Of a DNA stretch of 64,000 nt, positions 32,684 to 59,810 are shown in pieces (the first letter of the stretch is position 1; the number at the start of each line of letters is the position of its first letter). A program made the translations under genes and the position numbers. Source of the DNA: Candidatus Bathyarchaeia archaeon (GTDB taxonomy: Archaea > Thermoproteota > Bathyarchaeia > Bathyarchaeales > Bathycorpusculaceae); assembly GCA_038883775.1 (NCBI GenBank), contig JAVZLM010000003.1:116397-180396 (forward strand). Direction: 5' to 3'. The notes beneath the pieces were generated by a model, which did no database searches, was not told the DNA's origin, and saw only the letters and a program-made list of their open reading frames with translations.

Positions 32684-32866
32684 TTAAATTAATTGTTTGC
32701 CCAGCCTATGCATTCTTTCCGTTATGAGGCTTAGTTCTTTTGCATAGTCCATTAAAGCCATCCGTAAGGTTTCGCTTTCGCTTGTTCCAAGACGCCTTGC
32801 AAGTTCGGTTAGGATTTCTTTTTGTTCTTTGCTTAAGACAACTTTCACTATGCATTTTCTGGGCAT
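32684..32866 (-). CDS. Ribbon-helix-helix (CopG-like) regulator, divergent from the head genes
   Basis: VKVVLSKEQKEILTELARRLGTSESETLRMAL. Confidence 0.8.
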   Translation of the reverse strand: MPRKCIVKVVLSKEQKEILTELARRLGTSESETLRMALMDYAKELSLITERMHRLGKQLI

Positions 32867-32981
32867 CCAACCACTCCCTCAGCCCCTCCTGTTGGTGCTT
32901 TTGTGGGCGTTTTGGTTGTACAATTTGCCTTTTCATTTTCTTCGTATATTAGTTTGGTGTTAGTTGTGTGAGGTTTGCGAA

Positions 32982-34145
32982 ATGCCTTGGGAAATAACCG
33001 ACCAGTATATTCGCAGCGGACACCGCAACCCAGAAGAGTTTGAACAAAACAGTTTACGCACAATCACGCTTAGTGAGGATGATGGGATTAAGGCTGTTGT
33101 CGGCAAGCCGAAGGGCAACGAAGGGATGGCTGTTCAAAGCTACCTGTTTGAAATTGCCAAGGGCTGGACCCTTGAAAAAGCTAAGGCATGGTTTGAAAGA
33201 CATCAGAAAGGCGAGGACTCTTTCGCCATCAAGGTTTTGGAAAAAATCGTTGACAAACCATTAAAGATTCGCGGCATTGCGCTTAGGGCTGGCATGAGCC
33301 GAAACCTTAACATTTACACCCCTGAAGAGTTACAGGCCTTTGCTAAGAAGCTTGTTTCTGCGCCCGTTTATGTTGAGCATGTGACTGTTCCAAACGCTGT
33401 TGGAAAAATTGTTAAGGCTGAATGGGATGGCACCAACCTTTGGTATGAAGCCGAAATCTATGATGATGAGATAGCTGAGAAAATTCGCAAAGGCTTAATT
33501 GGGCATGTAAGCGTAGGCGCAGACTATGAAACCATAGACTTCGTGGATGGAAAAATTCCCCATGGTTTACACAATGCAGAACTAAGCCTTGTAGCTGTGC
33601 CAGGCGTTCCAGAAACAAACATCCAAATCATGGAAAAGCTAAAGCTTAAAGAACAAGAGTTCGAACCCATAATTTCCGGCGAGTATATCCTTGGCTTTTA
33701 TCAAGACGTTTCCGCTTTCTTGCCCGAACATTTTAGCACCGTGTGGCTTGACAAAGAAAATGGCATCCTAGCCCTAATCGGAAGATTACGGGCTGAGCCT
33801 GAAACTCGGAGGGTTCAGAGCATATTCTTCGCTAAAGAGAAGATGTGGAATATAAACAAGATTCGAGATTGGCTTCTTCTGCATCCACATTATATGGCTT
33901 CGGCGGGTACTTCAGCACCTCTACAGACTCCGCTGAAAGAGCCTAAAAATGAGGTTAAAGTTGCCGAAAGTCTCGTAAAAAATTCTAGGGCTATGATACC
34001 AGTAGAAGAAGCCATACGCATGATTCAGAACGTTTTGCCAAGCCCGATGGTGGAGCGAAGCTGGGGTTTGGGTCCGCAGAGGCTTTGCCAAGAACTCCGC
34101 GGTGTCATATTAAACCTTCGTAGGAGGGTGAAATCTGATGGTTAA
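32982..34145 (+). CDS. Prohead maturation protease (HK97/herpes assemblin fold) flanked by two copies of an accessory domain
   Basis: SRNLNIYT...VYVEH...VGKI, HVSVG, AELSLVAVPG catalytic motifs; position upstream of decoration and MCP genes. Confidence 0.8.
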   Translation: MPWEITDQYIRSGHRNPEEFEQNSLRTITLSEDDGIKAVVGKPKGNEGMAVQSYLFEIAKGWTLEKAKAWFERHQKGEDSFAIKVLEKIVDKPLKIRGIALRAGMSRNLNIYTPEELQAFAKKLVSAPVYVEHVTVPNAVGKIVKAEWDGTNLWYEAEIYDDEIAEKIRKGLIGHVSVGADYETIDFVDGKIPHGLHNAELSLVAVPGVPETNIQIMEKLKLKEQEFEPIISGEYILGFYQDVSAFLPEHFSTVWLDKENGILALIGRLRAEPETRRVQSIFFAKEKMWNINKIRDWLLLHPHYMASAGTSAPLQTPLKEPKNEVKVAESLVKNSRAMIPVEEAIRMIQNVLPSPMVERSWGLGPQRLCQELRGVILNLRRRVKSDG

Positions 34146-34651: not shown

Positions 34652-34656
34652 TTGCT

Positions 34657-35638: not shown

Positions 35639-35893
35639 ATGTTAAAGTTTGAAGGCAAATGCCCTTCCTGCGGAAAAACGCATTATTCAAACCGCAAGGA
35701 TGACATTGTTGTCTGCGACTGCTATAGGCTTTGTCCATTATGCGGAGCTGAAATGGAGCCTTACCCTTCAGACTTAGCACCCAACACTTATGCGGCGGAT
35801 GGCAAAAGAGACTTAGCCATTCTAATGGTTTGTTCCCACCATTCTCCCCCATTTTTTAGCACCAGAAAACCTGTGGAGGTTGTTTGCACATGA
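35639..35893 (+). CDS. Cys-rich zinc-finger protein
   Basis: CPSCG...CDC...CPLCG...C..H. Confidence 0.7.
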   Translation: MLKFEGKCPSCGKTHYSNRKDDIVVCDCYRLCPLCGAEMEPYPSDLAPNTYAADGKRDLAILMVCSHHSPPFFSTRKPVEVVCT

Positions 35894-36132
35894 GAAATTT
35901 GCGGGATAGATTACATTTAGCCAAAACAGTATTAAAGGAGCTTAGTAGGCAGCCACTTTGCAGAACAGAGCTTGAGAAGAGAACTGTTAAAAAGTTTGGA
36001 ACCCACGCCACTTTTGAAGGCATATTCCACTATCTTGTTCAGAATGGTTATGTGCAGAAGAGCGAGCAGAAGCATCGGGCTCCTTACGTGATTACTGAGA
36101 AAGGTGTTAAACTTTTGGAGGGGTTGGAGTGA
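35890..36132 (+). CDS. Winged-helix DNA-binding protein
   Basis: L.EL..QPL.RTEL...FHYLVQNGYV.K...PYVITEKG; stop/start overlaps with both neighbours. Confidence 0.75.
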   Translation: MRNLRDRLHLAKTVLKELSRQPLCRTELEKRTVKKFGTHATFEGIFHYLVQNGYVQKSEQKHRAPYVITEKGVKLLEGLE

Positions 36133-37346
36133 ACAAAATTTTGAAGCGTCTAATTGAGGCTTTTTCACTTAAAGCCCGAAGCGGTTACACTTATCCGCAA
36201 TCATCAACTGTTTATGAAACTCCAAGCATACCGCTTAGCGACGTGATAAAGCTTTATGAGCGAGACCCCACATGTAAGGCAAGCGTTGACTTGTTGGCTG
36301 CATCCGCCGTTGGCATGGGCTTTTACACGACTGTTAATGAGGCGTATGAGCGGGCTGAAGAAGCGAAAAGGGTTGTGGACAAGTTTAACGAAAATGTTAA
36401 TTTGGATGCGCTTCTCTGCGACATGGCGCGAATCTTAATTGCTTGTGGAAACGAGTTTTGGCTTAAGATTACTCCTGAACGCCTAACGGAACTGCATAGG
36501 CTTCCAGTGGACGCTGTGGAACGCATTGAACAAACCTACATTCAAGATGGCGCATTAAGGCTTCCCTACAAGGTTGAAGGCTATAAGCTTAGGCAAAGTT
36601 ACGGCGGCGAAAGCCTAAAGCCCGAAGCCATAATCCACTGGAGAATAAACCATATTGGCTTTTCAAGTTTCGGAACAGGCGTCTTACAAGTGCTCTTGCA
36701 CTCGCTTACGTTTCAGTCTGATAGGCGTCCAGCCTATGCTTGGATGAAAGCAAAAATTGAGCGGATAATGCCAAAAATTTTTGAAAAGTATGCGGGACCA
36801 GACGTTTTGGCTCTGCTGGAAAGGGCGGACGAAGCAACAATCCAAAAGTTTGAGAAAGCCATAAAAAGCCGAGGCGAAGAAGGCGCCTGGCTTTTCTACA
36901 GCGGAAAAGGAGACATAAAACCGTTAACGCTTGACCCGAGAGCCCGCTTCGAATACTACATTGAGCACATAATAAACCAGTTCTATCTTGGCTGCGAAAC
37001 GCCACTACCACGCCTTTTCAGTACGCCGGGCTTTACTGAAGCCTCTGCCAAAGCAGCCCTAGACCTCCAAAGCATGCTCATCAAGCCTATTCAGCGATAC
37101 ATTAAGCGGCAAGTTGAACGCGAAATCTTTAACCCAGTTTTGGCTCAAGCCGGCTTAAACCCTGCTGAGGCGCAGGTTCGCTTAAACTGGGGAAGTGAGA
37201 AGGTGCCTGAAATTGTTATGGCTGACATGCTTAAGGCTGCAGAGTTGGGACTTATTCGTCAAGAAGAGTTTCGCAAGAACGCTGTGAAATTTGGTTGGCA
37301 GCTTTGGGAAATGCCTGAAACCTCCATGGAAAGCGCCACAAAATGA
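36129..37346 (+). CDS. Portal protein
   Basis: LYERDP..KASVD.LA...VG.GF, LI.CGNEF, LP...V, IIHWR.N...FGTG.L, IKPIQRYI..Q.EREIF. Confidence 0.82.
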   Translation: MNKILKRLIEAFSLKARSGYTYPQSSTVYETPSIPLSDVIKLYERDPTCKASVDLLAASAVGMGFYTTVNEAYERAEEAKRVVDKFNENVNLDALLCDMARILIACGNEFWLKITPERLTELHRLPVDAVERIEQTYIQDGALRLPYKVEGYKLRQSYGGESLKPEAIIHWRINHIGFSSFGTGVLQVLLHSLTFQSDRRPAYAWMKAKIERIMPKIFEKYAGPDVLALLERADEATIQKFEKAIKSRGEEGAWLFYSGKGDIKPLTLDPRARFEYYIEHIINQFYLGCETPLPRLFSTPGFTEASAKAALDLQSMLIKPIQRYIKRQVEREIFNPVLAQAGLNPAEAQVRLNWGSEKVPEIVMADMLKAAELGLIRQEEFRKNAVKFGWQLWEMPETSMESATK

Positions 37347-37441
37347 AGCTCTTTTTCTCCTTTCTCCTCACGGATTCAAATATCGTATGCGCTTTCTGGA
37401 GGCGGGAAACAAATTAAAAGCCTAAAAAGGGAGGTGAAAGA

Positions 37442-37681
37442 ATGAATGTGTTAAACATAGGCTTGGGAGTTTGCGCCGCCCTAATCTACGCTTTCTTGGG
37501 GTATGCAGCACAAGATAAACCATTCAATTGGAATAAGTTTCTGCGAACCGTTGCCATCGGCACATTTTCAGCCCTTGGGTTGGATATGACTGGATTGACC
37601 TTCGACGTTTACACAGCCTTGGTTGGTCCAACAGCCATAACGGTTTGGTTGCAGAAACTTGTTGACACCGCAAAGCCCTAA
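37442..37681 (+). CDS. Small membrane protein (holin-like candidate)
   Basis: 79 aa, 2-3 hydrophobic segments, strong GGAGGTGA RBS; F.W.KF.RT pattern. Confidence 0.55.
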   Translation: MNVLNIGLGVCAALIYAFLGYAAQDKPFNWNKFLRTVAIGTFSALGLDMTGLTFDVYTALVGPTAITVWLQKLVDTAKP

Positions 37682-37737: not shown

Positions 37738-39414
37738 ATGGTGGCGATGCCTATGAAAACAAAATATTTTTTGGTTCTAATCCTAACTGCTTTGCTGTCT
37801 GCCATGCTCCTCTATGGGTTTTATACCGTTGAAGTCAAAGCGCCAGATGGCGTAGACCAGCCACTTTCAAAAATTTATGAAATAAAAATGCTTTGGAACA
37901 ATTCTATGAGCGTATATGACGTGGCAGTTTCAAAAGACGGCAATTATATAGCCGCTGTGAACGAGACTGGCTTGTACTATTTTGAATGGAACATTTCAAC
38001 CCCAAAATGGTGGTATCCAGCAACAACAACGACGCTTATGTCTGTGGCCATATCCGCTGACGGCGAATATGTGGTTACGGGCAGCAATGATGGGTATCTC
38101 CGTTACTTCAACAATTCCCGTGCAACAACTGGTGAGCGCTTAACTCCCACATGGACAAGCATGTGGCTTTTGGGACCCGTGGAAAGGGGCACATTAGACA
38201 TGTCAGATGACGGAGAATATATTGTAGGAGGTGGCACGGGACCAAATGTGTGGTATTACGCTGGGTGCACCAGCAGATATGGCGAAGACGAACATTACAC
38301 ATGGGGTAATTGGCTACCTGTAAATGATATACGAGCCGTCGACATGTCTCCAGATGGCAAATATGTGGCTGTAGGAGGGGAAAACCGTAGCGATTTGCAT
38401 AATGGTTTTGTAGCCTTTTACGAAGATGCAAATACCGCATCAGGATACTATGATCCCATTTGGATTGCTCATAGCGCATTAAATTATAGTGGCTGTTACG
38501 TAGTGGATATTGAAGTTTCTGATGACGGTTATGCTGTTGCGGCAGTAACCAACTATGCGACAACTCTCCACTATTGGGCAAACGCCACAAACTTGACAGG
38601 CGACCCAGAACCTTCATGGAACCATTATGAATCATTTGTCTGCGTAGACATAAGCTCTGACAGCAACGAGGTTATAGCTGGCTCCGATGACCTATACCAT
38701 GGAGGATTGTATTTCTGGTCTAATGCAAGGACTTTGTCGGGGTGGATAAGTGAGGACTGGCATAGCCTCAATAGTCAGATATTTGATGTTGCCATAAGTG
38801 ATGATGGCGAGTTAATATGTGCCGCCGCCCGTTTAGGAGTTGCTTCCGAGTATAAAGCGTACTTCCTTAAGGGTAATGGCGAAGTGATAGAAGAATTTGA
38901 TTTACTCCAATTAAGTCCATTGGTTTCTATGTCTGGAAATGGCATTATAACGGCAGTGGCGGGTCCTGGCTATGATAGCCTTTACGTTTTCCAAACTCTA
39001 GTGGATATTACTCCGCCTTTGATAGAGAATGTGCATCAGCAACCAGCTAACGACAGTGTTTATCCAGAGGATGAGGTTATGGTTTATGCTAATGTTACCG
39101 ATGACCTAAGCGGAGTAAAACAGGTAACGCTAAACTACACTTACACTAATGCCACTGGAACATGGAATGGAACGGTCATCATGGATAATCTTGAAGGAAA
39201 CCTCTACAACGGCACAATACCAGCCCTTCCCTACTGCACAAACGTAACCTACATAATCATAGCTGAAGACAACTTCAACAACACAATCACAACCCAAGAT
39301 TTGGGACAAGAATACAAGTATCACGTAATTCCAGAATTCTCGTTGCAGCTAATATTTCCAATACTTGCAGCATCCACGATGTTTGCAATTCTGATTCGCA
39401 AAAGAAAACGTTAA
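37738..39414 (+). CDS. Secreted beta-propeller (WD40-like) surface protein with Ig-like domain and PEF-CTERM anchor
   Basis: Signal peptide; repeated V.IS.DG.Y blades; C-terminal VIPEF + TM + RKRKR. Confidence 0.85.
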   Translation: MVAMPMKTKYFLVLILTALLSAMLLYGFYTVEVKAPDGVDQPLSKIYEIKMLWNNSMSVYDVAVSKDGNYIAAVNETGLYYFEWNISTPKWWYPATTTTLMSVAISADGEYVVTGSNDGYLRYFNNSRATTGERLTPTWTSMWLLGPVERGTLDMSDDGEYIVGGGTGPNVWYYAGCTSRYGEDEHYTWGNWLPVNDIRAVDMSPDGKYVAVGGENRSDLHNGFVAFYEDANTASGYYDPIWIAHSALNYSGCYVVDIEVSDDGYAVAAVTNYATTLHYWANATNLTGDPEPSWNHYESFVCVDISSDSNEVIAGSDDLYHGGLYFWSNARTLSGWISEDWHSLNSQIFDVAISDDGELICAAARLGVASEYKAYFLKGNGEVIEEFDLLQLSPLVSMSGNGIITAVAGPGYDSLYVFQTLVDITPPLIENVHQQPANDSVYPEDEVMVYANVTDDLSGVKQVTLNYTYTNATGTWNGTVIMDNLEGNLYNGTIPALPYCTNVTYIIIAEDNFNNTITTQDLGQEYKYHVIPEFSLQLIFPILAASTMFAILIRKRKR

Positions 39415-39445
39415 AGGCAATTAAAGATAGCAAAGCACCCAATTT

Positions 39446-39658
39446 TTATTGTTGTTTTGGCTCTTGCCACTTCTCGATGATTAACTTGTCGTCTCCAAGC
39501 TTAAAACTCACTTTAACAGCAATAGAATCCGTGCCTCTCTTTGTTTTTGTGAATTCTTTGAATGGAAACATGCTGTCTTGAGCCAAATCAAGCGGTAAAT
39601 AAATCAAGTATTTGCCGTCTTTTCTTCTGAACAAGCGTCCTTTCCCCTCATTAACCAT
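39446..39658 (-). CDS. Small AbrB/SpoVT-like protein
   Basis: GRLFRRKDGKYLIYLP.DLA.D..FPF...VKVSF...KLIIE. Confidence 0.55.
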   Translation of the reverse strand: MVNEGKGRLFRRKDGKYLIYLPLDLAQDSMFPFKEFTKTKRGTDSIAVKVSFKLGDDKLIIEKWQEPKQQ

Positions 39659-39758
39659 ACGTCTCACTCCCAATTAATTCATATCAGACGGAATTGATTA
39701 GCACAGAAATTATTTAAATCTTGTTCTTTAATGAAAACATTACTGGTTAAGTTAACCC

Positions 39759-41912
39759 GTGGAGAAGAACATGTTGAAAAGGAGAGTTATATTCGTTTTA
39801 GTCGCGTCTTTGCTTCTTGACTCCCTAATATTACGGTTTCAAGTTTCTCCCGTTTCCAGTTGGGGTAATGGTGGTTATAGTGATAATCCTTCCAACCCAA
39901 AATATGGGACTCACGATTGGATTGCAGAGCATGCTTTGGATTGGCTACCAAGGGCGGAGAAATGGTTTATTGTTAAGAATCTTGCGGCTTATCTTTATGG
40001 CACTGAATTGCCAGACAATGGCACGATTCTGTATGGTATAGGCGACACTGGTAAGCATCACGTTTACTATTTCAGTAATGGTTCGTTGCAAGATGATGCT
40101 TCTGCAAAGAGGGCAAGAGAGGAATACGATAAGGCTTTTGAACTTTTCAAGAGTGGAGATTTAGCTAATGCCTCCTTAAGGCTTGGCGTCATGACCCATT
40201 ACATTGCTGATTTGGCAGTTTTCGGTCACGTGATGGGTTCCGGCACGGATTGGGGAGCCGAAGTACATCATAGTGATTACGAAAATTATGTGCTTACAAG
40301 AACAGACGCTTATAATGACGAATTCAATGTTTTTCTTAGCTTTGATGGTGAGTTAAGCCAAATTTCCGCTTATGATGCCGCACTTGCGCTTGCTTATGAT
40401 ACAACATTTGACTTGGACGGGGATTTAACGTGTGTCTGGATGGACCAAAACTACAATTGGAGCGATACAACTTTTAAGAACCGTTGCGGAGAATCCCTAA
40501 ACTTAGCTGTAAACTTGATCGCTGATGTTTTGCACACGTTTTATTTGGAAATGCAAGATGTGGCGCATTTTATTGATGTTCCCTTCCACTACCAAGACGT
40601 TGAATATTATTGTGGTCCTGCATGTCTTGAAATGGTTTTCGACTATTATGGAGAAGACATAAATCAATCGGAAATAGCGGATGTCGCAAGAACTTTTCCA
40701 TACGAGACTTTTACTGATGAATTACGAAGGGCTGCCCACTTCAGCAGCATCAGCATATCCATGGGCGCTGAAATTCCAGACTACAACATTACTGGCTATA
40801 CTTTACGCAGTTTAGGCTACGCAGCCTTCGAAGCGCATAATATGAATTTAAACCAACTTAAACACTACATCGATCAAAACAAACCGCTAATTCTGCTCAT
40901 GTGGTATAGCGAAGCCCATGTTTACGGTCATTATCGTGTTGTGACAGGTTACAATGAAACACACATTTTCATGCATGACCCTTGGGTATGGCTTGGGAAA
41001 TATGGCGGTCCAAACATTGCGCTTAATTACACTTTATTTTTGGATCTTTGGTCTTACTCCGGCTACTGGGCGCTTTATACTTTGCCATGGATCATAAATG
41101 TCTCAGCACCAACTTATATCAGACCTGAAAAACCTTTCCAAGTAAACGTTACAATCACTTATCCAAAACCGCTTCCAAACGCCTTAAACGATTATGATGC
41201 AACTTCATGTAATGCAACCATAATATTGCCTCAAAATCTAAGCTTAGTTGCTGGAGAGACCCCAAAGAAAACGGTTAGTTCAGGTTTTTTGGAGGCTGGA
41301 GCCAGCACCTCAGTTAATTGGACTTTGGTAGCAGATGATTATGGAGTGTACGCGATTGGCGTTGAGGTTGAGGGTCTGGTTTCGGGCAGCGTTTGGCCTC
41401 ATGGAGATTATCCCGCCTACAATTATAATGATAGAATTGGCGCAAAAGCCAACTTCACAATAGAATTTAGGGAAGACAGCCATGCCCCAATTTTAACAAA
41501 CCTTATCAGATTTCCAAGCGGAGATGTGCAACCAGACCAAGAAGTGAAAATTTCAGTCAACGTCACAGACCTTGAAAGTGGAGTAAAAAATGTCACCCTA
41601 TTCTACACAACAAATGATTGGGTTACATGGGAAAACAAAACAATGAACCTAAACCAAACAACAAAATTGTATGAAGCCACAATCCGTGGACAGCCTGCGG
41701 AAACATGGGTTAAATTCAAAATAGTTGCTTATGACTATTTAGAAAATAATGCAACCCTTGACGGAACAACGCCGCACTGCATGTACTACGTAATTCCAGA
41801 ATTTCCATCCCTTACGGCTTTATTACTCTCCACAATGCTCACAATGCTTTTCAGTGTCTACTTAAGAAGAAAAGAACAAAAACTTCCAAATGCTTTTGTA
41901 GACTGTAATTAA
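39759..41912 (+). CDS. Secreted Zn-dependent phospholipase C/S1-P1 domain + C39-like peptidase + Ig-like domains, PEF-CTERM anchor
   Basis: Mature N-terminal W(GNGG)...THDWIAEHA, HYIAD...H, HHSDYE (Zn ligands); Q..YYCGPACLEMV, GHYRVV.G, HDP (C39); VIPEF + TM. Confidence 0.82.
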   Translation: MEKNMLKRRVIFVLVASLLLDSLILRFQVSPVSSWGNGGYSDNPSNPKYGTHDWIAEHALDWLPRAEKWFIVKNLAAYLYGTELPDNGTILYGIGDTGKHHVYYFSNGSLQDDASAKRAREEYDKAFELFKSGDLANASLRLGVMTHYIADLAVFGHVMGSGTDWGAEVHHSDYENYVLTRTDAYNDEFNVFLSFDGELSQISAYDAALALAYDTTFDLDGDLTCVWMDQNYNWSDTTFKNRCGESLNLAVNLIADVLHTFYLEMQDVAHFIDVPFHYQDVEYYCGPACLEMVFDYYGEDINQSEIADVARTFPYETFTDELRRAAHFSSISISMGAEIPDYNITGYTLRSLGYAAFEAHNMNLNQLKHYIDQNKPLILLMWYSEAHVYGHYRVVTGYNETHIFMHDPWVWLGKYGGPNIALNYTLFLDLWSYSGYWALYTLPWIINVSAPTYIRPEKPFQVNVTITYPKPLPNALNDYDATSCNATIILPQNLSLVAGETPKKTVSSGFLEAGASTSVNWTLVADDYGVYAIGVEVEGLVSGSVWPHGDYPAYNYNDRIGAKANFTIEFREDSHAPILTNLIRFPSGDVQPDQEVKISVNVTDLESGVKNVTLFYTTNDWVTWENKTMNLNQTTKLYEATIRGQPAETWVKFKIVAYDYLENNATLDGTTPHCMYYVIPEFPSLTALLLSTMLTMLFSVYLRRKEQKLPNAFVDCN

Positions 41913-42016
41913 TCTTTTCCTTTCTGCTTTTTTTCAAAATAATTTTAAATTTTCCTTTTTTATTGTGAAAATTGTTTAAATTTTCCTATTTTCCTTTTTT
42001 GTTTGAGGTTAAGGGT

Positions 42017-42370
42017 TTGGCAAGCGTTTCACCCGATGATGTCCGTGACGTGCTTAATCTCAGTTCGGCTGATGTTCCAGACGCTAAAATTGTTAAGATG
42101 ATTAAGCGAGCTGAGGTTACATTGGAGCTTGAGCTCGGAAAAGAAATCGATTATGCCGATTGCACTGAAGCGGAGAAGGAGTTCATAACCGTTTTAGCGG
42201 CTATTTATGCCATTTGCTATTTGACTGGTGGTTCAGCGGTTGGCTTAAGCTTCAGCCTTGGAGACCAAAACATAAGCGTACTAAGCAAGGCTCCGCCCTT
42301 GGATGTTTTGCAAGCTGAGCTTGAAAGGATTTTGAATGGCTTAAAAGCGCCTCATGTGGGGTATGCCTAA
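42017..42370 (+). CDS. Head-tail adaptor (gp6/gp15-like)
   Basis: SVSPDDVRDVL...VPDAKI...I.RAE; SFSLGD..IS; first gene of the neck/tail block. Confidence 0.65.
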   Translation: MASVSPDDVRDVLNLSSADVPDAKIVKMIKRAEVTLELELGKEIDYADCTEAEKEFITVLAAIYAICYLTGGSAVGLSFSLGDQNISVLSKAPPLDVLQAELERILNGLKAPHVGYA

Positions 42371-44718: not shown

Positions 44719-44720
44719 AG

Positions 44721-47005: not shown

Positions 47006-47007
47006 CC

Positions 47008-49547: not shown

Positions 49548-49574
49548 AACGATATAATTTTCTGAGGCTTGCTG

Positions 49575-51490: not shown

Positions 51491-52036
51491 CTGGAAAGTT
51501 TTGAAGCTCTTGTTAAGCGGGTTGTTGGAAGTTTTAATGCTTTTGGTTTGGATTACATGTTTACTGGAGCCTTGGCGGCAAGCTTTTATGGTAGGGCTCG
51601 CACAACAAGAGACATTGATGTTGTTGTTGCTGTTGTTGGCAGAGATTGGAAAAGTAAGCTTGTTTCAGCTTTGAAGAGGGCTGGTTTGGTGGTTGAGGAG
51701 GAAAAAATTGATGAAGCTTTAAGGTCTGGCTATAAAATAGCTACTTTTAAAAATGGCAAATCTCCGCTAATGGTTGACATAATATTTTCTGACACGAAGC
51801 TCGAGAAAAAGGCTGGGAAAATTTTGGGCATGCCAACATTTTATCAGAAGCCTGAAGATTTGGTTTTGGCTAAACTGCGAATGATTAAGGCAACAAAGCC
51901 ACGAGAAAGAGCCTTAAAGGACGAGGAGGATGTGAGGGCTATTTTAAAATTCACAAGAGTGGATTTAGACGAGCTGAAAAGGCGGGCGAGAAAAGAAAAT
52001 ACGCTTTCAATCTTTGAGGCTTTGATGGCAGAATAA
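51491..52036 (+). CDS. Pol-beta superfamily nucleotidyltransferase (DUF6036-like), probable CTG start
   Basis: YMFTGALAASFYGRARTTRDIDVV, PEDLVLAKL; in-frame extension to CTG at 51491 after GGAGG. Confidence 0.75.
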   Translation: MESFEALVKRVVGSFNAFGLDYMFTGALAASFYGRARTTRDIDVVVAVVGRDWKSKLVSALKRAGLVVEEEKIDEALRSGYKIATFKNGKSPLMVDIIFSDTKLEKKAGKILGMPTFYQKPEDLVLAKLRMIKATKPRERALKDEEDVRAILKFTRVDLDELKRRARKENTLSIFEALMAE

Positions 52037-52041
52037 AAGAC

Positions 52042-52461
52042 TTATGTTTCGCCTATCCATAATGTTTCTTTAATATTTTTGAAGTGTTCGTCTCCTGTGA
52101 TTATTTTTGCGTTTAAGGTTTTTGCTGTTGCTAGTATTATGGCGTCGAAGAGGCTTGGCGGTTTAAGTTTTTCTTTTTTAGCTTTTTCGGTTAGTTGCAT
52201 GTAGCATTTTGCTGATTCTATGGCTGTTTCCTTGTCTATGGGGGTTATTTCTGAGGTTTCTTCTATTGTTTTTAGGCGTTCGCTGATTGTTTGTTCTTTT
52301 GCGCCTTCGCGTATGTATTTGCGGGCTATTTCAGCCAAAACAATGTCTGGCGTGTAGGCTTCTTCAGCTTCTTGAAGGATTTCTTTGGCTTTTTCTCCTT
52401 TTTGGCTTCCTATGAAGATTTCAATCCAAGCGTAAGCGTCAATCACCACTGCTGTTTTCAC
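52042..52461 (-). CDS. vapC: VapC PIN-domain toxin
   Basis: VVIDAYAWIE, VLAEI, SLFDAIILATA, IITGDEHF. Confidence 0.9.
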   Translation of the reverse strand: MKTAVVIDAYAWIEIFIGSQKGEKAKEILQEAEEAYTPDIVLAEIARKYIREGAKEQTISERLKTIEETSEITPIDKETAIESAKCYMQLTEKAKKEKLKPPSLFDAIILATAKTLNAKIITGDEHFKNIKETLWIGET

Positions 52462-52654
52462 CGCGGTCTTCCTCCGTGAAAGACTTAATTTTGCCCTTGT
52501 CTATGCCGAAAACTTCGCTGAGCCTTTGTCTGCGTTGTTGCGCAATAAAAAGCCTTATAGTTTCGTCTAGGGTTTGGGCTCCCAATTTTCTGCGGAGCCT
52601 CTCCAACATTTTTAATGTGCTTTTTGAAACCCTAATGGTTGTTGCTTCACTCAA
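52439..52654 (-). CDS. vapB: VapB-type antitoxin (RHH)
   Basis: TTIRVSK.T...L..LR..LGA.TLDETI; overlaps vapC start. Confidence 0.82.
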   Translation of the reverse strand: MSEATTIRVSKSTLKMLERLRRKLGAQTLDETIRLFIAQQRRQRLSEVFGIDKGKIKSFTEEDRGENSSGD

Positions 52655-52790
52655 ATAGTTTCACCATATACAAATATATTATATACAAAAATATAAGTAT
52701 ACTGCAGATTTAGGCTCTTATATCCATATTGTTTTGGTTTTGGAGGTAAAGGCGTATTGTTGAAGCGCTTAAAATGTTAGAAATGGTTAA

Positions 52791-52928
52791 AAGCCTTCGG
52801 ATTTCTGGAGTTTGCGCATTGGCGATTACAGAACCATATATGAAATTGACAAAGCTAATGGTAGAGTGATAGTTTTGTTTGTTGGACATAGGCGAAAGGC
52901 CTACGAAGACCTAACGAAAATGTTCTAG
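52791..52928 (+). pseudogene. RelE/ParE toxin remnant (C-terminal half)
   Basis: KPSDFWSLRIGDYRTIYEIDKANGRVIVLFVGHRRKAY; in-frame stop immediately upstream and no start. Confidence 0.75.
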
Positions 52929-52934
52929 AGCTGA

Positions 52935-53032
52935 TTACATATGGTTTGGGGTTAAGCCCTTGGAGTGTTGGTCTTCTGATGTGAGTTTTGCGTTTATAGC
53001 TTTCGCCATTGTCATTATTATGGCGTCGAAGG
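52935..53032 (-). pseudogene. Second vapC fragment
   Basis: FDAIIMTMAKAINAKLTSEDQH matches the C-terminus of the adjacent VapC; shares ATTATGGCGTCGAAG with 52136-52150. Confidence 0.6.
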
Positions 53033-53084
53033 ACTTTAGGGAAAAATTAATAATTGTACTGTGGTTTTATATGATTGAAAGAAA

Positions 53085-53747
53085 ATGCATAGAATGCTCT
53101 TTAAACTTTCATGTGCGATTTTATTTTTATTAGCTGCTTTTTCCGTTCCGTGTGTAAATGCAAGAGGTGGTGTTTTCGTTATCGGTCCAATGCAGAAGGA
53201 AGTTGAGACTGTTGAACTAACGGTTTCTGAAAGTATGCATGCTGATGTTTGCGGAAACATTTCGGTTGTTAACGGTTACATAGACTTTTATGTGACAAAT
53301 CCTTCGGGAGGTATCATTCTTTGCTATAATAAGGTATCCTTTGGCTGTTTTAACTTTTCTGCTGTGGAAAATGGAACTTATGTGTTGCATTTAGCGAACG
53401 CAGAATCCGAAAACGATGTGACAGCAACACTGAATTACGGCGTGAATTTTAAAGTATTTGTTCAGGAAACGCTCTCTTGGCATACAGTTGCGACATGGCG
53501 AGTAGAAGTTACTCCTACTTTTCCTTTTGATATTGTAGGGATCCTAACACAGATTATTGTAAGTATTACACTCCTTTACTATCTTGCAAGCTTAGGTGAA
53601 AAAATTGTGGGGCTCATTCGTTGGTTCTATTGGAGAGCAAAACACGGAAAGTCAAAGACACCTGTGATACTTAAACTAATTAAGCCGGCAAAGAATTTAA
53701 AGTTATTTAATTTCCTTGCAATTTACATTAAAACAATACTTATATGA
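53085..53747 (+). CDS. Membrane-anchored GOLD/emp24-like beta-sandwich protein
   Basis: Signal peptide; IDFYVTNPSG...G.FNFSA.ENGTY.L...N; C-terminal TM. Confidence 0.65.
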   Translation: MHRMLFKLSCAILFLLAAFSVPCVNARGGVFVIGPMQKEVETVELTVSESMHADVCGNISVVNGYIDFYVTNPSGGIILCYNKVSFGCFNFSAVENGTYVLHLANAESENDVTATLNYGVNFKVFVQETLSWHTVATWRVEVTPTFPFDIVGILTQIIVSITLLYYLASLGEKIVGLIRWFYWRAKHGKSKTPVILKLIKPAKNLKLFNFLAIYIKTILI

Positions 53748-53784
53748 TGCCGTGAAAAATAAACAACTTAAGGTTGTATGTTAA

Positions 53785-55917
53785 ATGTCATCTAACTACA
53801 TCATTGAGAAACTCTTAAAACTGAAAAATTGGAAAGAATTGAATATAACTCAACGTGAAGCTGTAAAAGCTGGCATTTTGAATTTAAAAGATAACTTTGT
53901 CATAATTGCTCCCACCTCTTCTGGTAAGACTGGAATTGCTCTCTTAGCAGCTTTACAAATGCTCGAAGTTGGCGGAAAGGTATTGTATCTTGTTCCAATG
54001 ACTGCACTCATAGCTGATAAAGAACGTGATTTTAGCGATATATCAGATAAAATTGCGGGGCTTAATTCATCACTATCAGATTGGGATAAAGCAGACGTTG
54101 TTATCACGACATATGAAAATTTCTATAAAAACGCATTGCTGCATCCGACGTATGTCAAGGGATTTACTTTAGCGATTGTTGACGAATTTCATGTACTGTA
54201 TGATAAGTTGCGTGGTTTCAATTTGGAGAAAGTAATCACCATTTTGAAAGAAATGAACATGAGAATAATTTGTCTTTCAGCCACATTTGAAGATAAACAA
54301 GAGATTAGCGAATGGTTAAATGCGAAGTTGGTCGTAGTCCCCGAAAGCGCAAGAGAAGTTAAGCTTACGTATGGTATCATTGATATTTCACAAACACCCT
54401 CAGCTAAACAAAATATTGAACTTTGTAAGAAACTCCTTGAAATGAAAAAAGAACCATATCTTGTATTTTGTACAAGTAAAGATTCTACAGTAGCGAGAGC
54501 CAAAGAAATGTGTTCTTTACTAGATAAAATTATATTTGATGAATCAAAATTGCGTGAGATATTTGCAAAGCAAGTCCGCAGAAAAAGATTTACAGCCCAA
54601 GAAGAAGAACTTCTAAAGTGTTTATTAAAAGGCGTGGGTTTCCATCACTCAGATCTTGATCAACAATTAAGGTCCTTAGTAGAGAATCTTTTTGCGAACA
54701 AAGCAATAAATTATTTATTTGCAACAACAGGCTTAGCCTATGGTGTTAACTTCCCTGCAAAAACAGTAGTACTTGCAGATTTGTCCTTTTATGATCCGTA
54801 TACCGGAAAAAGAATACCGGTGCCAAATTATATGTATCTACAAATGGGTGGTCGCGCTGGTAGACCTGGTTTTGGCGCTGAAGGATACGCTTATGTTGTT
54901 AAGAAAAAAGGACAAAATGACGCAGTAAGATATAAAGATGGAACAATAGAGAGAGCTATTTCACGCGTCCGGGAAGATGAAAACTTTAGGAAAACTATCC
55001 TAGAGTTAATATATTCCGGACGCTGTCGCGATGAAGAAATATTGAATTTCTTTAAGAATACCTATTTCAATTTCCAGTCTGAAAAAGAAAAAGTTCGATT
55101 CATACCCTTCGACCTCTTTAAGATCCTAGAAGGACATGTAAAATACCTTTATGACAATGGTTTTATAGAAAGCACAGGTGTAGCCGGGTATAAACTTACA
55201 GGACTTGGCGAGGTGACAATGGATTTCTTATTTAGAACATTTGCTGATTATCAATTAACGCCATTTAAAGAGCTTAATGATATTCTAGAACGAGATAAGA
55301 GAATCAGAATGGATTTTGATATCATTTATGAACTTTTCCGTTTGTTTGAAGGGGCTTGCCTTAGCAGACATTCACGGGGAAAATCAGAGGAAATAGCAAG
55401 TTTCTACGAAAAAAGGAGTATCCCTGTGTCTGATCAAAAAGATCCAGAGTATTCGGCATACGCAATTTATCATGGTTGGATGGAAAATCAAGAGATACCC
55501 GACATCGAATCCAGATACAAGGTATATGCAAGCAAGTGTCCTCAAGTGGCAAAAGAACTCTTTAATCTTTTAAATGTTTATGAACGCCTTGCAAAGAAAA
55601 AGGGTATAAGTATTCCGGCGGGTTTCAAAGACTTTAAAGATAGAGTCAGATACGGTGTGACTACCGAAGAACTCCCATTTAAAAGGTTAAGAGGAATCGG
55701 TAGAGCAACTACTAGGAAAATGAAGAAGTACTGTGATATATTCAGAAATCCTCCATGGAACCTTTCTGGTTCTATGCTTGAAATTTTTGTTCAAATATAT
55801 AAAAGGGATGGTGAAAGAAAATTTTCAGAGACTTTACAGTTTGTTAAAGGTATTGGCAAAGGGAAGAAACATGAAAAAATCCTTAAGCTAGTTAAAAGCA
55901 TTGCCGAAAAGAAGTAA
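53785..55917 (+). CDS. Ski2/Hel308-like SF2 helicase
   Basis: APTSSGKT, DEFH, LSAT, GVGFHH, ATTGLAYGVNFPA, QMGGRAGRPG; C-terminal HhH (LRGIGR). Confidence 0.9.
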   Translation: MSSNYIIEKLLKLKNWKELNITQREAVKAGILNLKDNFVIIAPTSSGKTGIALLAALQMLEVGGKVLYLVPMTALIADKERDFSDISDKIAGLNSSLSDWDKADVVITTYENFYKNALLHPTYVKGFTLAIVDEFHVLYDKLRGFNLEKVITILKEMNMRIICLSATFEDKQEISEWLNAKLVVVPESAREVKLTYGIIDISQTPSAKQNIELCKKLLEMKKEPYLVFCTSKDSTVARAKEMCSLLDKIIFDESKLREIFAKQVRRKRFTAQEEELLKCLLKGVGFHHSDLDQQLRSLVENLFANKAINYLFATTGLAYGVNFPAKTVVLADLSFYDPYTGKRIPVPNYMYLQMGGRAGRPGFGAEGYAYVVKKKGQNDAVRYKDGTIERAISRVREDENFRKTILELIYSGRCRDEEILNFFKNTYFNFQSEKEKVRFIPFDLFKILEGHVKYLYDNGFIESTGVAGYKLTGLGEVTMDFLFRTFADYQLTPFKELNDILERDKRIRMDFDIIYELFRLFEGACLSRHSRGKSEEIASFYEKRSIPVSDQKDPEYSAYAIYHGWMENQEIPDIESRYKVYASKCPQVAKELFNLLNVYERLAKKKGISIPAGFKDFKDRVRYGVTTEELPFKRLRGIGRATTRKMKKYCDIFRNPPWNLSGSMLEIFVQIYKRDGERKFSETLQFVKGIGKGKKHEKILKLVKSIAEKK

Positions 55918-56013: not shown

Positions 56014-56409
56014 ATGAGGGATGTTGTTAGGCAGGTTAAAGAGCTAAGCCTTGGCGACCTCATCCGTGTTGAGTGGTTTGATGCTAGCATTGGCAAGAGT
56101 CTCAGCGGCGGTTTAAATGGTATTGATGTTCCTGTTACTAGTTGGGGCATTTTCCTCGGCGTTTTAGGCGCCAAAAACAAGCACATAATCCTAGCCCAAA
56201 ACAGTTTTCGTTATGCTGACGGCGTTCATGACATTGATTATACTGCTGTTCCAACAGCTTGGACAACAAACATAACCGTAATAGCCAAAGCACATGTTCC
56301 CCGCGAAACAGCCGAACAACTCTTAAACAGCTTTTTGGTAGGCGGAAAACGCACAGCCTGCAAACGCCTAAAACAACAAAGAGTGAAAAACCATGAACGA
56401 CTGGATTAA
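56014..56409 (+). CDS. Hypothetical beta-rich (Sm/SH3-like) viral protein
   Basis: LGDLIRVEWFDAS...SWGIFLG...HIILA...VP; first gene of the terminase operon. Confidence 0.6.
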   Translation: MRDVVRQVKELSLGDLIRVEWFDASIGKSLSGGLNGIDVPVTSWGIFLGVLGAKNKHIILAQNSFRYADGVHDIDYTAVPTAWTTNITVIAKAHVPRETAEQLLNSFLVGGKRTACKRLKQQRVKNHERLD

Positions 56410-56623
56410 AAAAGCCCTCACAAAAAGAACACGCAGAGGCGAAATCCAACCAGACCAACGCCTAGTCTACGGCGTAAAATTCGCAATCGCAATGACCCTA
56501 AGCCTATCCGCCCTAGAAATCGCCCACCTAGCTTTTCTTGGCAGGTGGAACAGCGAAATCTTCGCCGCCATCACGGGCTTAACAGGCACAGTAAGCGGAA
56601 TCCTCATCGCACAAAAAACCTAG
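56393..56623 (+). CDS. Small two-TM membrane protein
   Basis: Two hydrophobic helices; overlaps the upstream gene. Confidence 0.6.
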   Translation: MNDWIKKALTKRTRRGEIQPDQRLVYGVKFAIAMTLSLSALEIAHLAFLGRWNSEIFAAITGLTGTVSGILIAQKT

Positions 56624-56642
56624 AGAGGAAGGGGTAGGGAAA

Positions 56643-56996
56643 ATGCCAAAATTTTCTCGTCCATTTTCCATAACCCGAAAAATCGCCCAACTAAAAGAAA
56701 AATTCAAAATTGACACCCAAAAGATTAGGGAGAAAATCCTCGAAGACCTCCAAGCCATCTTCGAAAACGCCGTCAGCATGGCAAAGGGCGAAACAACGGT
56801 AAACAAGGAAACATTAAACATAAAACAAAGACAAGCATGGGCCCGCGTAGCCGCCTACACAGCCCAAGTAATCCAAAGCATAGCAAAAGGCTTCGACGAA
56901 CGCCAAATAGACCAAGATTTGGCAAAACTGGAGGAACTCATAAATGAGGCAGCAGCAAAGACAAAAACTGCGCCAACTGGAACAGCGACTTGCTGA
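56643..56996 (+). CDS. Putative terminase small subunit
   Basis: Helical 117-aa protein overlapping the terL start; positional inference only. Confidence 0.5.
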   Translation: MPKFSRPFSITRKIAQLKEKFKIDTQKIREKILEDLQAIFENAVSMAKGETTVNKETLNIKQRQAWARVAAYTAQVIQSIAKGFDERQIDQDLAKLEELINEAAAKTKTAPTGTATC

Positions 56997-58380
56997 GACG
57001 CAAGAATCCTTCCAAATCCCAGAAGACCCAACGGAATTCTGCACAAGAATTTTGGGCTTCCAGCCAACCGCCTACCAAGAAGAACTCATAAGGCTTTTCC
57101 AAACAAACCAGTTTGTAGCCGCCAGGTGGTGCCGCCAAAGCGGAAAAACCCAAACAATAAGCGCACTACTCCTATGGCATGCACTAAAAAACCCAAAAAG
57201 CCATATTGGCGTTGTGGGTCCAAGCTGGCGCCAAACAAAACTTGTCATACGAAGAATTAACACTTTTTTGCGGAAATTACCCAAAAACTGGTACCAAAAA
57301 CCCCTACACACAATGGTTAGACTCACCAACGGTAGCCTAATCGAAGCCTTCCCAAACAATCCCGAAACCATCCGCGGACCAACACTAGACTTGGTTTACT
57401 GCGACGAAATGAACTTCATAGCAAAAGACGAAGAACTATACGACGCTGTACTTTTCACACTTGGCACAACAAACGGAAAATTCATCTGCACGTCAACCCC
57501 GTGGACAACAGACTCCATCTTCTACAAAATTTGGCACGACCAAGCTTTCAACGACTTCGCAAAAAGCCACGTCACATGGCAAGACGCTGTTGAGCCCAAA
57601 GGACCATTAAAACGCAAAATTTTAGCCAAAATTAAAAGACAGTTAGAAGGCGACCCTTGGCGTTGGCGCCGCGAAATGGAGGCCGAGTGGGCTGAAGACG
57701 AAAGCGTCTGGCTACCGCAAGCCTTAATCACAAGTTGCATTGACAGCCAACTTGAATATGCTAGTTTTGAAAAGGCGGTTATAGGCGAGTTTTATGCTGG
57801 TTTGGACCTTGGCAAACATCAGGATTATAGCGTTTTATCCATAGTGCAGATGGAAGATTCTTCTATAAAATTAATCTATATGCACCGTTTTCCACTGCAA
57901 ACCCCATATGCAAGCGTGATCGGTTATGTCAAAACCCTATGCGACCGTTGGCAAAAGATACGCAAAGTTTTGGTGGATATGACTGGTGTAGGCGATTATA
58001 TAGTTGAGGACATGGTGAATGCTGGAATAAGCGAAACAGAAGGCGTCAAGTTCACGCAGGAAACTAAGGAGGGGCTTGCTGAGTGGCTTAAAAGGTGCAT
58101 GACTGAGAAGAGGCTTAAGATTCCTTATGATGGCGAGTTGATTGCTGAGTTGAATGTTGAGCGTTTTGAATTGACGAAAGAGGGCAAAATAAAATTTAAT
58201 CATCCAGAGGGCACTCATGATGACCGTTTTTGGAGCCTAGCCTTGGCTTGTTATGCCACAAGAGGATGGAGCGCTGCTCAGCTTTGGGTTTTGCCACGTT
58301 TGGCTTTTGTTGGTAAGGCGAAGTTGGAGCGTTTGCGGAAGAAACTGTTGAAGCATTTGGTGGTTGGCGTTTTGAGATGA
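56944..58380 (+). CDS. Terminase large subunit
   Basis: YQ, WCRQSGKT (Walker A), TIRG, LVYCDE (Walker B), TSTP, GLDLGKHQDYS, VDMTGVG, HDD nuclease motifs. Confidence 0.93.
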   Translation: MRQQQRQKLRQLEQRLAETQESFQIPEDPTEFCTRILGFQPTAYQEELIRLFQTNQFVAARWCRQSGKTQTISALLLWHALKNPKSHIGVVGPSWRQTKLVIRRINTFLRKLPKNWYQKPLHTMVRLTNGSLIEAFPNNPETIRGPTLDLVYCDEMNFIAKDEELYDAVLFTLGTTNGKFICTSTPWTTDSIFYKIWHDQAFNDFAKSHVTWQDAVEPKGPLKRKILAKIKRQLEGDPWRWRREMEAEWAEDESVWLPQALITSCIDSQLEYASFEKAVIGEFYAGLDLGKHQDYSVLSIVQMEDSSIKLIYMHRFPLQTPYASVIGYVKTLCDRWQKIRKVLVDMTGVGDYIVEDMVNAGISETEGVKFTQETKEGLAEWLKRCMTEKRLKIPYDGELIAELNVERFELTKEGKIKFNHPEGTHDDRFWSLALACYATRGWSAAQLWVLPRLAFVGKAKLERLRKKLLKHLVVGVLR

Positions 58381-59810
58381 GAAGGCGTAAGCGAGAGTTT
58401 TTTAGGATTCGGCAGTTTAAGCGTCGTTATGATGCTCATGAAGGAAAGTTTGTGATTAATATTGCTTATGAGACTGCTGCTGTGGCGACGCCTCGGACTT
58501 TGGCGGTTGCTGAGGCTTTTGGTTTGGGTTTGGATGAGCATAAGCGGTTTATACTTTATGATGATGTGGAGTTGAAGATTGGCGAAAGAGACATTGTTTA
58601 TATTACTGGGGAGAGTGGTTCCGGCAAAAGCGTCTTGCTGAGGGCTTTGAGGCGTGATTTGGGCGATAGCGCTATTGACTTGGCTGAGATTCAGCCAGAA
58701 GCGGATAAGCCTTTGATTGATACTGTTGGCAGAAGCTTCACTGAAGGTTTGGAATTGCTTAGTCGGGCGGGTTTGAATGATGCTTTTCTTTTTGTTAGGC
58801 GTTTTAGCGAATTAAGCGATGGGCAGAAGTATCGTTATAAAATTGCTAAGCTTATGGAAAGCAATAAACAATGGTGGTTTGCTGACGAGTTTTGTAGCGT
58901 TCTTGACCGTGATATGGCTAAGATTGTGGCTTTTAACCTCCAAAAAGTTGCGAGGCAATTGGGTAGAGCGGTTGTTGTGGCTACTACGCATTTGGACTTG
59001 TTTGAGGATTTGAAGCCTTCCGTGCATATTCATAAGCGTTTTGGAAGAGAAATAACTGTGAATTATTATGGGAATGAGCCAGCAAGGGAGTGTAGCCTAG
59101 TAAGGGAGATGAGGGTTGAAGAGGGCGATTTTAGCGATTATAAGCGGTTAAGCGCTTTTCATTATCGTTCAAGCAGGTGTCCGCCTCCGCGTAAGGTTTT
59201 TGTTTTGAAGCGTGATAGCGAATTGTGTGGGGTTATTGTTTACAGTTTTCCGCCGCCTATATGTTTTGGGCGTAGTAGGGTTTGGAGGGGCAGCTTTTCG
59301 GAGTTGCAGAGGGATTTTAGCCTTATATCGCGGGTTGTTGTGCATCCGAAATATCGTTCTATTGGTTTGGGCGTGAAGCTTGTTAGGGAAACTTTAGCCA
59401 TGGCGGGGACGCCTTTTGTTGAGGCTTTGGCTGTTATGGCGCGGTATAACCCATTCTTTGAGAGGGCTGGAATGCAGAAAATAGCCGAAAGCAAGCCAAG
59501 CGAAGGAATTTTGTGGGCTTTGGATAGGCTTCGCCTTTTAGGTTTTAATCCAGCCATGCTTGGAAGCACAGAACAGAATCTATCAGCCATCAGGCGGGTT
59601 GGGAAAGCTAAAATCATAAAAATTTTATTGAAACTTTCGGAGCGTGAAGCGTCTGTGAGGAAAAGGCTTATGGCTGGTGGCGGAGCATATCCAACCCATG
59701 AAGAGTTTATGGCGAAAGTTAGAGGGTTTAGCGAAGAGGGCTTGGCTAAAGCGTTAAAGACGCTTGGTTTTTTGGCACAAACAAAAGTCTACTTATTCTG
59801 GAGAAAATAA
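58377..59810 (+). CDS. ABC-type ATPase fused to a C-terminal GNAT acyltransferase
   Basis: GESGSGKS, LSDGQKYR, ADEF, ATTH; then ISRVVVHPKYRSIGLG and MARYNPFFERAGM. ATGA overlap with terL. Confidence 0.88.
   Translation: MRRRKREFFRIRQFKRRYDAHEGKFVINIAYETAAVATPRTLAVAEAFGLGLDEHKRFILYDDVELKIGERDIVYITGESGSGKSVLLRALRRDLGDSAIDLAEIQPEADKPLIDTVGRSFTEGLELLSRAGLNDAFLFVRRFSELSDGQKYRYKIAKLMESNKQWWFADEFCSVLDRDMAKIVAFNLQKVARQLGRAVVVATTHLDLFEDLKPSVHIHKRFGREITVNYYGNEPARECSLVREMRVEEGDFSDYKRLSAFHYRSSRCPPPRKVFVLKRDSELCGVIVYSFPPPICFGRSRVWRGSFSELQRDFSLISRVVVHPKYRSIGLGVKLVRETLAMAGTPFVEALAVMARYNPFFERAGMQKIAESKPSEGILWALDRLRLLGFNPAMLGSTEQNLSAIRRVGKAKIIKILLKLSEREASVRKRLMAGGGAYPTHEEFMAKVRGFSEEGLAKALKTLGFLAQTKVYLFWRK

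Follow-up and report, generated by a model that had tools for sequence, protein, structure and literature searches.

Gene transfer agents (GTAs) are well studied in bacteria. Those of the RcGTA type in Alphaproteobacteria are encoded by a chromosomal head-tail-terminase cluster that has no integrase, is under purifying selection and is inherited with the chromosome among close relatives. The PBSX/skin defective prophages of Bacillus are kept by the host at a fixed locus and form particles with a contractile tail, while in Staphylococcus lateral transduction DNA is packaged in place from the integrated prophage outward into host DNA, by prophages that later excise and are fully infectious. On the archaeal side, the voltae transfer agent (VTA) of Methanococcus voltae is a particle carrying host DNA; to our knowledge, archaeal GTAs are known from this single methanogen, and we know of no described means of gene exchange in the Bathyarchaeia, which are abundant and mostly uncultured. 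Here we analyse a 64,000-nucleotide stretch of a bathyarchaeial genome (G000:C3:116397-180396, hereafter the window; its right end is the end of the contig), which carries a provirus cluster for a head-tailed particle beside tRNA-Ile, with no integrase. We hold at about even confidence that this is a grounded temperate head-tailed provirus, similar to Bathyarchaeia tailed provirus 1 (BATPV1), which selection has kept and which the host now retains as a particle of the GTA or PBSX kind.

Set beside these systems, the cluster shares with RcGTA-type GTAs a chromosomal kit, the lack of an integrase, purifying selection and within-genus inheritance, a likeness of organisation. It differs in that its capsid gene is not visibly reduced, its distribution is patchy and its genus-level trees conflict with host markers. 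Like PBSX it is a defective prophage at a fixed locus, with a tail protein that matches the YqbQ-like Pfam family; PBSX, however, is bacterial and has a contractile tail, whereas no sheath was found in the window cluster. VTA and the cluster are both archaeal but belong to different phyla, and are set side by side here by description. The likeness to lateral transduction lies in the packaging block, which comes last and points to the tRNA side.

In its published description, BATPV1 is a temperate provirus of 33,358 bp (record JAAKEZ010000002_pro; Microbiol Spectr 2024, PMC11705971). One of the 76 genome loci with a relative of the window's major capsid protein (MCP), L079, lies in record JAAKEZ010000002. 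Seventeen genes of the window have counterparts in the BATPV1 region, collinear and 43-73% identical, and both run from a protease-like gene through cement, MCP, portal, tail block and small open reading frames (ORFs) to the large terminase subunit (TerL) and an ABC-ATPase+GNAT gene. Like the window cluster, BATPV1 abuts the 3′ end of a tRNA gene with its right end and has no MCM, primase or polymerase. Unlike it, BATPV1 carries a 422-residue tyrosine integrase (PF00589, 4.4e-20), 34 nt from its target tRNA-Pro, and a perfect 22-nt attachment (att) repeat, a copy of the tRNA-Pro end, 33.3 kb away. It also has no cargo gaps between the blocks, and falls in the other, non-syntenic clade of the MCP+portal tree. 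Uncharacterised ORFs, a methylase and a UvrD-nuclease follow its ABC-GNAT gene before the integrase. The window cluster has the same geometry, but at tRNA-Ile and without integrase or att repeat. Judged by gene order and sequence similarity, it belongs to the BATPV1 lineage.

This kinship bears on two possible marks of domestication. A first-pass annotation of the window, made from the sequence alone, had described a virion kit in three blocks with a non-canonical, terminase-last order, and had counted that order as a sign of domestication. The blocks and the order stand, but BATPV1 shares the order, so it is native to the lineage and we dropped it as a sign. The lack of MCM, primase and polymerase is uninformative on domestication, since integration-competent BATPV1 is also without them. 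A distant IMG/VR relative (L160:3234-6183, MCP 67%) places its genes for an ABC-like ATPase and TerL immediately before the protease-like gene, a circular permutation of the window order. Our reading of the literature on Bathyarchaeia found no description of a GTA or domesticated provirus, and the available portions of PMC10848311, PMC11705971 and PMC13573593 make no mention of GTAs or domestication.

The long ORFs between 32,964 and 59,810 lie nearly all on the plus strand. The genes of the three blocks are as follows.

32964-34145, plus strand: first cluster gene, 393 residues, probable capsid maturation protease/scaffold (weak fold matches)
34211-34651, plus strand: cement/decoration protein (PF09956, 56 bits)
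34648-35610, plus strand: HK97-type MCP (PF05065, 31 bits; phrog_267, 1.2e-14)
35639..36132, plus strand: Zn-ribbon-like 84-residue ORF and winged-helix-like 82-residue ORF (weak Pfam matches)
36129-37346, plus strand: probable portal (PF04860, E 5.9e-7, 29 bits; phrog_12, 7e-7)
37442-37681, plus strand: conserved 79-residue ORF between the portal and the first variable gap
41972..51077, plus strand: tail block as a whole (profile and fold matches)
from 41972, plus strand: 132-residue ORF, first of the tail block (position)
42371-43759, plus strand: 462-residue ORF, predicted (alpha/alpha)6 barrel like GH76 enzymes and epimerases
between the 462-residue ORF and the tube, plus strand: 320-residue ORF, no PDB profile match
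44721-45575, plus strand: tube (PF18906, 3e-18)
between the tube and the gp10/Neck1-like gene, plus strand: 157-residue ORF (position)
45975-46466, plus strand: gp10/Neck1-like protein (phrog_5, 3e-23)
between the gp10/Neck1-like and YqbQ-like genes, plus strand: 180-residue ORF (position)
47008-48603, plus strand: YqbQ-like tail protein, 531 residues (Pfam family match)
between the YqbQ-like and fibre genes, plus strand: two 79-residue ORFs (position)
49071-49547, plus strand: fibre (phrog_4176, 1.5e-12)
49569-51077, plus strand: variable DUF2341 protein, end of the tail block
from 56014, plus strand: three small ORFs of 131, 76 and 117 residues, candidates for the small terminase subunit (TerS) by position only
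56944-58380, plus strand: TerL (Terminase_6N, 3e-18; phrog_2, 2e-42)
58377-59810, plus strand: ABC-ATPase+GNAT fusion (profile searches)

Profile matches support the decoration protein, MCP, tube, gp10 and fibre that the first-pass annotation had named. Its portal is probable, with a phrog_12 match and a PF04860 score under the cut-off of 39 bits, and its protease is weak. The first cluster gene matched no Pfam family and no PDB profile, its AlphaFold model is poor (pLDDT 62.5), and its best Foldseek matches, herpesvirus assemblins and T4 gp21, reach E of about 0.01-0.03. In relatives the gene always precedes cement and MCP, and together these features point weakly to a capsid protease/scaffold. 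The Zn-ribbon-like ORF is present in 63 of the 76 loci and the winged-helix-like ORF in 69. TerL is confirmed at 56944-58380; the ORF at 58377-59810 is not a terminase, its profiles being those of an ABC-ATPase+GNAT acetyltransferase fusion. No tool supports the adaptor, stopper, terminator, gpG/GT, tape-measure protein, hub as such or TerS, nor the claim of a short tail; profile searches of the ORFs at 42-51 kb matched no tape-measure or sheath family. A PDB profile search of the 462-residue ORF gave a sole match, at E 0.033. The order of the tail block is the same in relatives and in BATPV1, and the packaging block (56014..59810) stays together even where it has been relocated (G061, G062).

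The cluster carries no recognisable integration machinery, as the first-pass annotation had claimed. A PF00589 search of the whole genome gave five sites, none of them in the window, and three full-length BATPV1-type integrases are encoded elsewhere in the genome. Flanking direct repeats do not exceed chance (longest 11 nt, with 0.77 expected), and neither a second copy nor a partial piece of tRNA-Ile was found in the window. Primase, MCM, Orc1 and polymerase families were likewise absent among the ORFs scanned by profiles, which include a DEAD/DEAH helicase. Extending the PF00589 search to 13 further cluster-carrying genomes returned no above-cut-off match inside any cluster; in two complete or near-complete Bathy-6 genomes and G064 the nearest matches lie at least 153 kb off. 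With the BATPV1 integrase as query, tblastn recovered the control (E 1e-104), and 10 syntenic regions, 20-80 kb long, gave no match. In G012 a sub-threshold integrase match lies outside the cluster, at a distance of 7.6 kb. What had looked like integrase fragments in L079 and L103 was discarded, being only Zn-ribbon matches that an NrdR-like host gene shares. Separately, G017:C1 (L173) has no cluster at this locus, but the C-terminal half of a BATPV1-type integrase (56% identity, 186 residues) is encoded there ~6 kb from NrdD.

Selection was assessed from dN and dS (Nei-Gojobori) between the window and two same-genus genomes, G004 and G001; more distant pairs were saturated, with dS above 1.5. 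Against G004, the 15 flanking host genes had a median dS of 0.483 and the 24 cluster genes one of 0.453 (Mann-Whitney p 1.0), with median dN/dS of 0.094 and 0.088, respectively. Against G001, flanks and cluster gave median dS of 0.696 and 0.736 (p 0.62) and median dN/dS of 0.096 and 0.083. Purifying selection on the cluster matches in strength that on the host genes beside it, and within the genus the cluster is co-inherited with its flanks. The dN/dS check that the first-pass annotation had proposed came out low, with medians of 0.083-0.088 for 23-24 cluster genes, equal to the flanks. By gene, the ratio is 0.03-0.04 for the MCP, 0.05-0.07 for the portal and the 79-residue ORF (36129..37681), 0.04-0.30 across the tail block and 0.07-0.16 for TerL.

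These values bear directly on the simplest alternative, an inert, decaying provirus remnant without present function, which is strongly disfavoured and to us highly improbable. Decayed copies in other genera and the insertion of toxin-antitoxin (TA) genes and low-GC cargo would suit a remnant, but in the window none of the ~23 core ORFs is interrupted, median dN/dS stays at 0.08-0.09 for dS of 0.45-0.74, and nearly every syntenic copy has open head genes, those at saturated dS included. Among syntenic loci, open frames were found for the protease-like gene in 43 of 44, cement in 45 of 45, the MCP in 44 of 44 (counting copies away from contig edges) and the portal in 36 of 37. Stops inside many tblastn matches lie at gene borders and were not counted as decay; a candidate MCP pseudogene in G012 was dropped, its stop lying at the match edge of an open frame of 317 residues.

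The same evidence of selection and retention would be expected of a particle that the host keeps for another purpose than gene transfer, such as a PBSX-like killer particle or a defence decoy, to which we give little probability. The YqbQ-like tail protein and the fast-evolving fibre fit particles aimed at competitors. TerL, the portal and the small packaging ORFs are, however, constrained like the tail genes, which points to DNA packaging as part of the function.

Across relatives, the locus recurs in one genomic setting. The 76 genome loci all lie in metagenome-assembled genomes (MAGs) of Bathyarchaeia or Thermoproteota, and 49 IMG/VR contigs add further MCP relatives. Of 77 related loci, 45 have a response regulator gene and/or the second of two 110-residue ORFs next to the first cluster gene; these left neighbours are absent in 17 rows, and 15 are too short to judge. 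The full common layout (host genes, NrdD, response regulator, kinase, two 110-residue ORFs, head, gap, tail, gap, packaging, tRNA side) is visible in longer stretches of G001, G004, G030, G012, G025, G063, G064 and G152, and tRNA-Ile lies at the same position in G000, G001, G004, G025 and G063. All three blocks are kept in 9 of the 11 syntenic clusters visible whole. G061 and G062 keep the near left neighbours, while their further flank differs and the packaging block lies inverted 25 kb upstream. The MCP+portal tree (68 rows) splits into two groups with 99% support in the Shimodaira-Hasegawa-like approximate likelihood ratio test (SH-aLRT): one clade holds all 37 syntenic rows with 10 of undecided synteny and 4 non-syntenic, and the other, which includes BATPV1, holds 13 non-syntenic rows and 4 of undecided synteny. 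Distances for NrdD at the same locus follow those of the head genes over 17 taxa (Mantel r 0.87, 0 of 5000 permutations as high).

Several observations weigh against a classical GTA retained by the host. The first-pass annotation had expected wide presence, which was not found. It had also proposed a comparison with the host tree, whose outcome is divided: cluster and flanks agree in dS within the genus, and genus-level trees conflict with RpoB and NrdD. MCP relatives occur patchily, in 55 of 150 family genomes (each at least 90% complete) and 21 of 49 genera. The corresponding count in the first sample was 17 of 36, and some absences are assembly breaks, as in G002, whose contig ends inside the first cluster gene. 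Over 11 genera, with RpoB as an independent marker, the correlation is weaker than over the 17 taxa: head genes give a Mantel r of 0.62 with RpoB and of 0.58 with NrdD. Approximately unbiased (AU) tests reject the RpoB clades on head data and the head clade on RpoB and NrdD data (p of 2e-9, 2e-5 and 7e-4 in one direction; 3e-5 and 8e-5 in the opposite one), for groups named after the trees had been seen. In G036 and G010 the head type of one group occurs in a host of the other, and in G022 the mismatch runs the opposite way; the G036 copy is decayed and on a long branch, which may explain part of the tree conflict.

Individual genes add to this conflict. A TerL of a second type, 35-36% identical to that of the window, occurs in three syntenic copies (L097:13853-15133; L100:6231 onward; L039:19173-20603), and looks like a single-gene replacement. 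In these clusters the small upstream ORFs are still 61-77% identical, and the two cases open to checking, G012 and G025, lack the 117-residue ORF. Fibre dS exceeds 2 within the genus, and the YqbQ-like gene is just 69% identical to that of G004. Such mosaicism is what recombination with infectious relatives produces. Some syntenic copies have decayed: G012 is without most tail genes, the TerL of G063 is cut to 259 residues, L045 and L039 are without tail genes, L067 has short frames and G007 has the first gene alone, while G021 is likewise among the genomes with decay or loss. G152 has a short recombinase-like ORF (218-residue frame, 44 bits) 5.4 kb past its cluster, behind TldD/PmbA-like genes. 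Finally, a reduced head is unlikely: the MCP has the same length as in 33-kb BATPV1, with 73% identity, so that the head is probably full-size and, judging from this sequence comparison, would hold the whole cluster, unlike those of classical GTAs.

The mosaic and incongruent features are what the two foremost alternatives draw on. The main rival is a still-moving, self-transmitting temperate virus, excised by an unrecognised or in-trans recombinase, which infects related genera and re-inserts at tRNA-Ile; the shared locus would then reflect site specificity and not descent. We consider this unlikely, though it accounts for the genus-level incongruence with RpoB and NrdD, the TerL swap, the fast-changing fibre and tail-tip genes and the patchy distribution, and could draw on integration-competent close relatives, the three full-length integrases elsewhere in the genome and the relatives on 49 IMG/VR contigs. 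It is opposed by the lack of an att repeat or partial tRNA-Ile copy, by the 14 clusters checked by hidden Markov models with no above-cut-off integrase inside, and by a within-genus dS equal to that of the flanks. Of the IMG/VR contigs that include upstream sequence, 8 have genes of the host flank there, and the others begin ~300 nt ahead of the first cluster gene; none is demonstrably a free genome.

The next rival is a self-spreading island that needs no integrase, being packaged in place with its flanks and then inserted at the same locus by homologous recombination. It would give a single account of why the locus is fixed and the integrase missing, why particle genes are under selection and why genus-level trees are incongruent, and a head sized for ~33 kb could take the 27-kb cluster. 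Flanking genes, however, are only 60-90% identical at the protein level between genera, a poor substrate for homologous recombination, and we regard this explanation as quite improbable. The host-maintained, GTA-like particle of the first-pass annotation fares unevenly: the absence of integrase and att sites, the conserved position in many genera and selection favour it, and patchy distribution, tree conflict and TerL exchange in three copies oppose it.

The three blocks are separated by two gaps of variable content.

37738..41912, plus strand: variable cargo, comprising a WD40+DUF7743 protein and a Zn-phospholipase C + C39 peptidase + DUF7743 protein (Pfam)
51548..55917: second variable gap, with an AbiEii-like nucleotidyltransferase (plus strand), a PIN protein (minus strand), a 220-residue ORF (plus strand) and a DEAD/DEAH helicase (plus strand) (Pfam)
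53785-55917, plus strand: the DEAD/DEAH helicase of that gap (Pfam)

The first-pass annotation had regarded these spacers as host-type. They are variable, as it had expected of related genomes, but behave as cargo hot spots of 0-19 kb. The portal-to-tail gap ranges from 0 to about 19 kb in relatives and is missing in BATPV1. The Zn-phospholipase C + C39 peptidase + DUF7743 protein recurs in this gap in many relatives (58-88% identity), and the WD40+DUF7743 protein in a few (57-94%); both are candidate envelope-degrading or egress proteins. In the second gap, GC is 0.36-0.375, as against 0.44-0.47 in the structural blocks. Decay of the TA genes, also claimed, is seen in part: the AbiEii-like ORF has 162 residues against a 238-position profile, and a second copy of the end of the PIN gene is degenerate, whereas the PIN gene itself is intact. 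Within 53085-55917 (GC 0.36), the helicase and the 220-residue ORF matched no other fetched locus and look like a recent insertion beside the TA genes.

The neighbours of the cluster are the following.

28196-28669, minus strand: receiver-only response regulator, host context (Pfam)
28621-31788, minus strand: PAS/GAF histidine kinase, host context (Pfam)
31773-32105 and 32212-32544, minus strand: two 110-residue ORFs, host context, conserved left neighbours
60008..62193, minus strand: right-end ORFs, among them a 219-residue ORF of no family (profile searches)
61750-62193, minus strand: 147-residue ribbon-helix-helix-like ORF, which travels with the cluster
62443..63388: right border as a whole, with an MscL-like gene (minus strand; Pfam) and the two tRNA genes that follow
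63129-63224, minus strand: tRNA-Ile(GAT), 3′ end facing the cluster
63310-63388, plus strand: tRNA-Arg(TCG), right border
63389-64000: start of a separate mobile element in tRNA-Arg(TCG), specific to this genome and not part of the cluster

The host genome, G000, is an archaeal MAG whose 28 contigs total 1.69 Mb, with 91% completeness; a simple scan of all of it found no CRISPR arrays. Window sequence occurs in 11 sequencing runs, all of them hot-spring metagenomes available as Logan contigs, with no RNA run listed among them. Contigs of four runs placed on the window are short and represent several strains, and one bridges 32161-32943 without differences. The first 28 kb of the window encode ordinary host functions (methylmalonyl-CoA mutase, thiolases, TldD/PmbA, NrdD). 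The left neighbours (28196..32544) are oriented divergently to the cluster and are also present in G021 and G035, which lack it; a regulatory link between the adjacent two-component system and the cluster would be conjectural. The histidine kinase gene contains a tandem internal duplication at 30059-30994 (75-78% identity, period ~465 nt), corresponding to its two GAF domains. In a same-genus NrdD (G003:C28:4157-7225), a two-piece match inside one open frame of 1034 residues suggests an intein.

On the right, the MscL-like gene and the 147-residue ORF separate tRNA-Ile from the cluster. In this genus the 147-residue ORF occupies the right end, on the minus strand; in other genera (L024-L035, G152) it is on the plus strand, immediately ahead of the first cluster gene. 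The cluster ends have therefore been rearranged between genera. Homology to G001 and G004 breaks at 63388, the end of tRNA-Arg, and resumes at contig C10:26855, where 23 nt of the 3′ part of tRNA-Arg are repeated (C10:26833-26855; element region G000:C10:26833-27574). The body of this element was assembled with neither contig. It was considered as the missing module of the cluster and rejected: G001 and G004 are without the element yet carry the whole cluster. The first-pass annotation had counted a linked integrase/att/replication module just outside the window against its reading; what lies there is this separate element.

We return to the reading of a grounded, host-retained provirus. Its firm part is that a BATPV1-like provirus that has lost integrase and att sites lies at the tRNA-Ile locus, has been passed on together with its flanks for no less time than the genus has existed, and owes its functional state to selection. 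On the fuller reading, the ancestor would have integrated at the 3′ end of tRNA-Ile(GAT), and the integrase and att repeats would then have been lost. The ~27-kb cluster would thereafter have been carried with the chromosome, with ~23 virion and packaging genes kept by selection. Most likely, the cell would still build DNA-filled head-tail particles; with the cluster unable to leave the chromosome, these would take up chromosomal DNA in place. Whether such particles carry host DNA for the benefit of the host we place at about an even chance; a GTA-like use of the cluster is plausible but unproven. More tentative, and on balance doubtful, is a wider version in which the cluster would be a family-wide GTA of Bathyarchaeia descended from a virus integrated at tRNA-Ile whose integrase was lost. 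Headful packaging in place would fill heads of full size and, much as lateral transduction does, run outward from the terminase block into the chromosome, the divergent response regulator/kinase pair would act as the switch, and the agent's own activity would exchange modules between genera.

An intact, virus-derived particle cluster that lacks integration machinery and occupies a single locus in many genera makes a concrete and testable case of a possible host-retained particle system in Bathyarchaeia, and integration-competent BATPV1 offers a natural before-and-after comparison. Even if the cluster is a virus moving by another route, its missing integrase and att sites need explaining. If the GTA reading is true, this would be the first GTA outside methanogens and the first in Thermoproteota.

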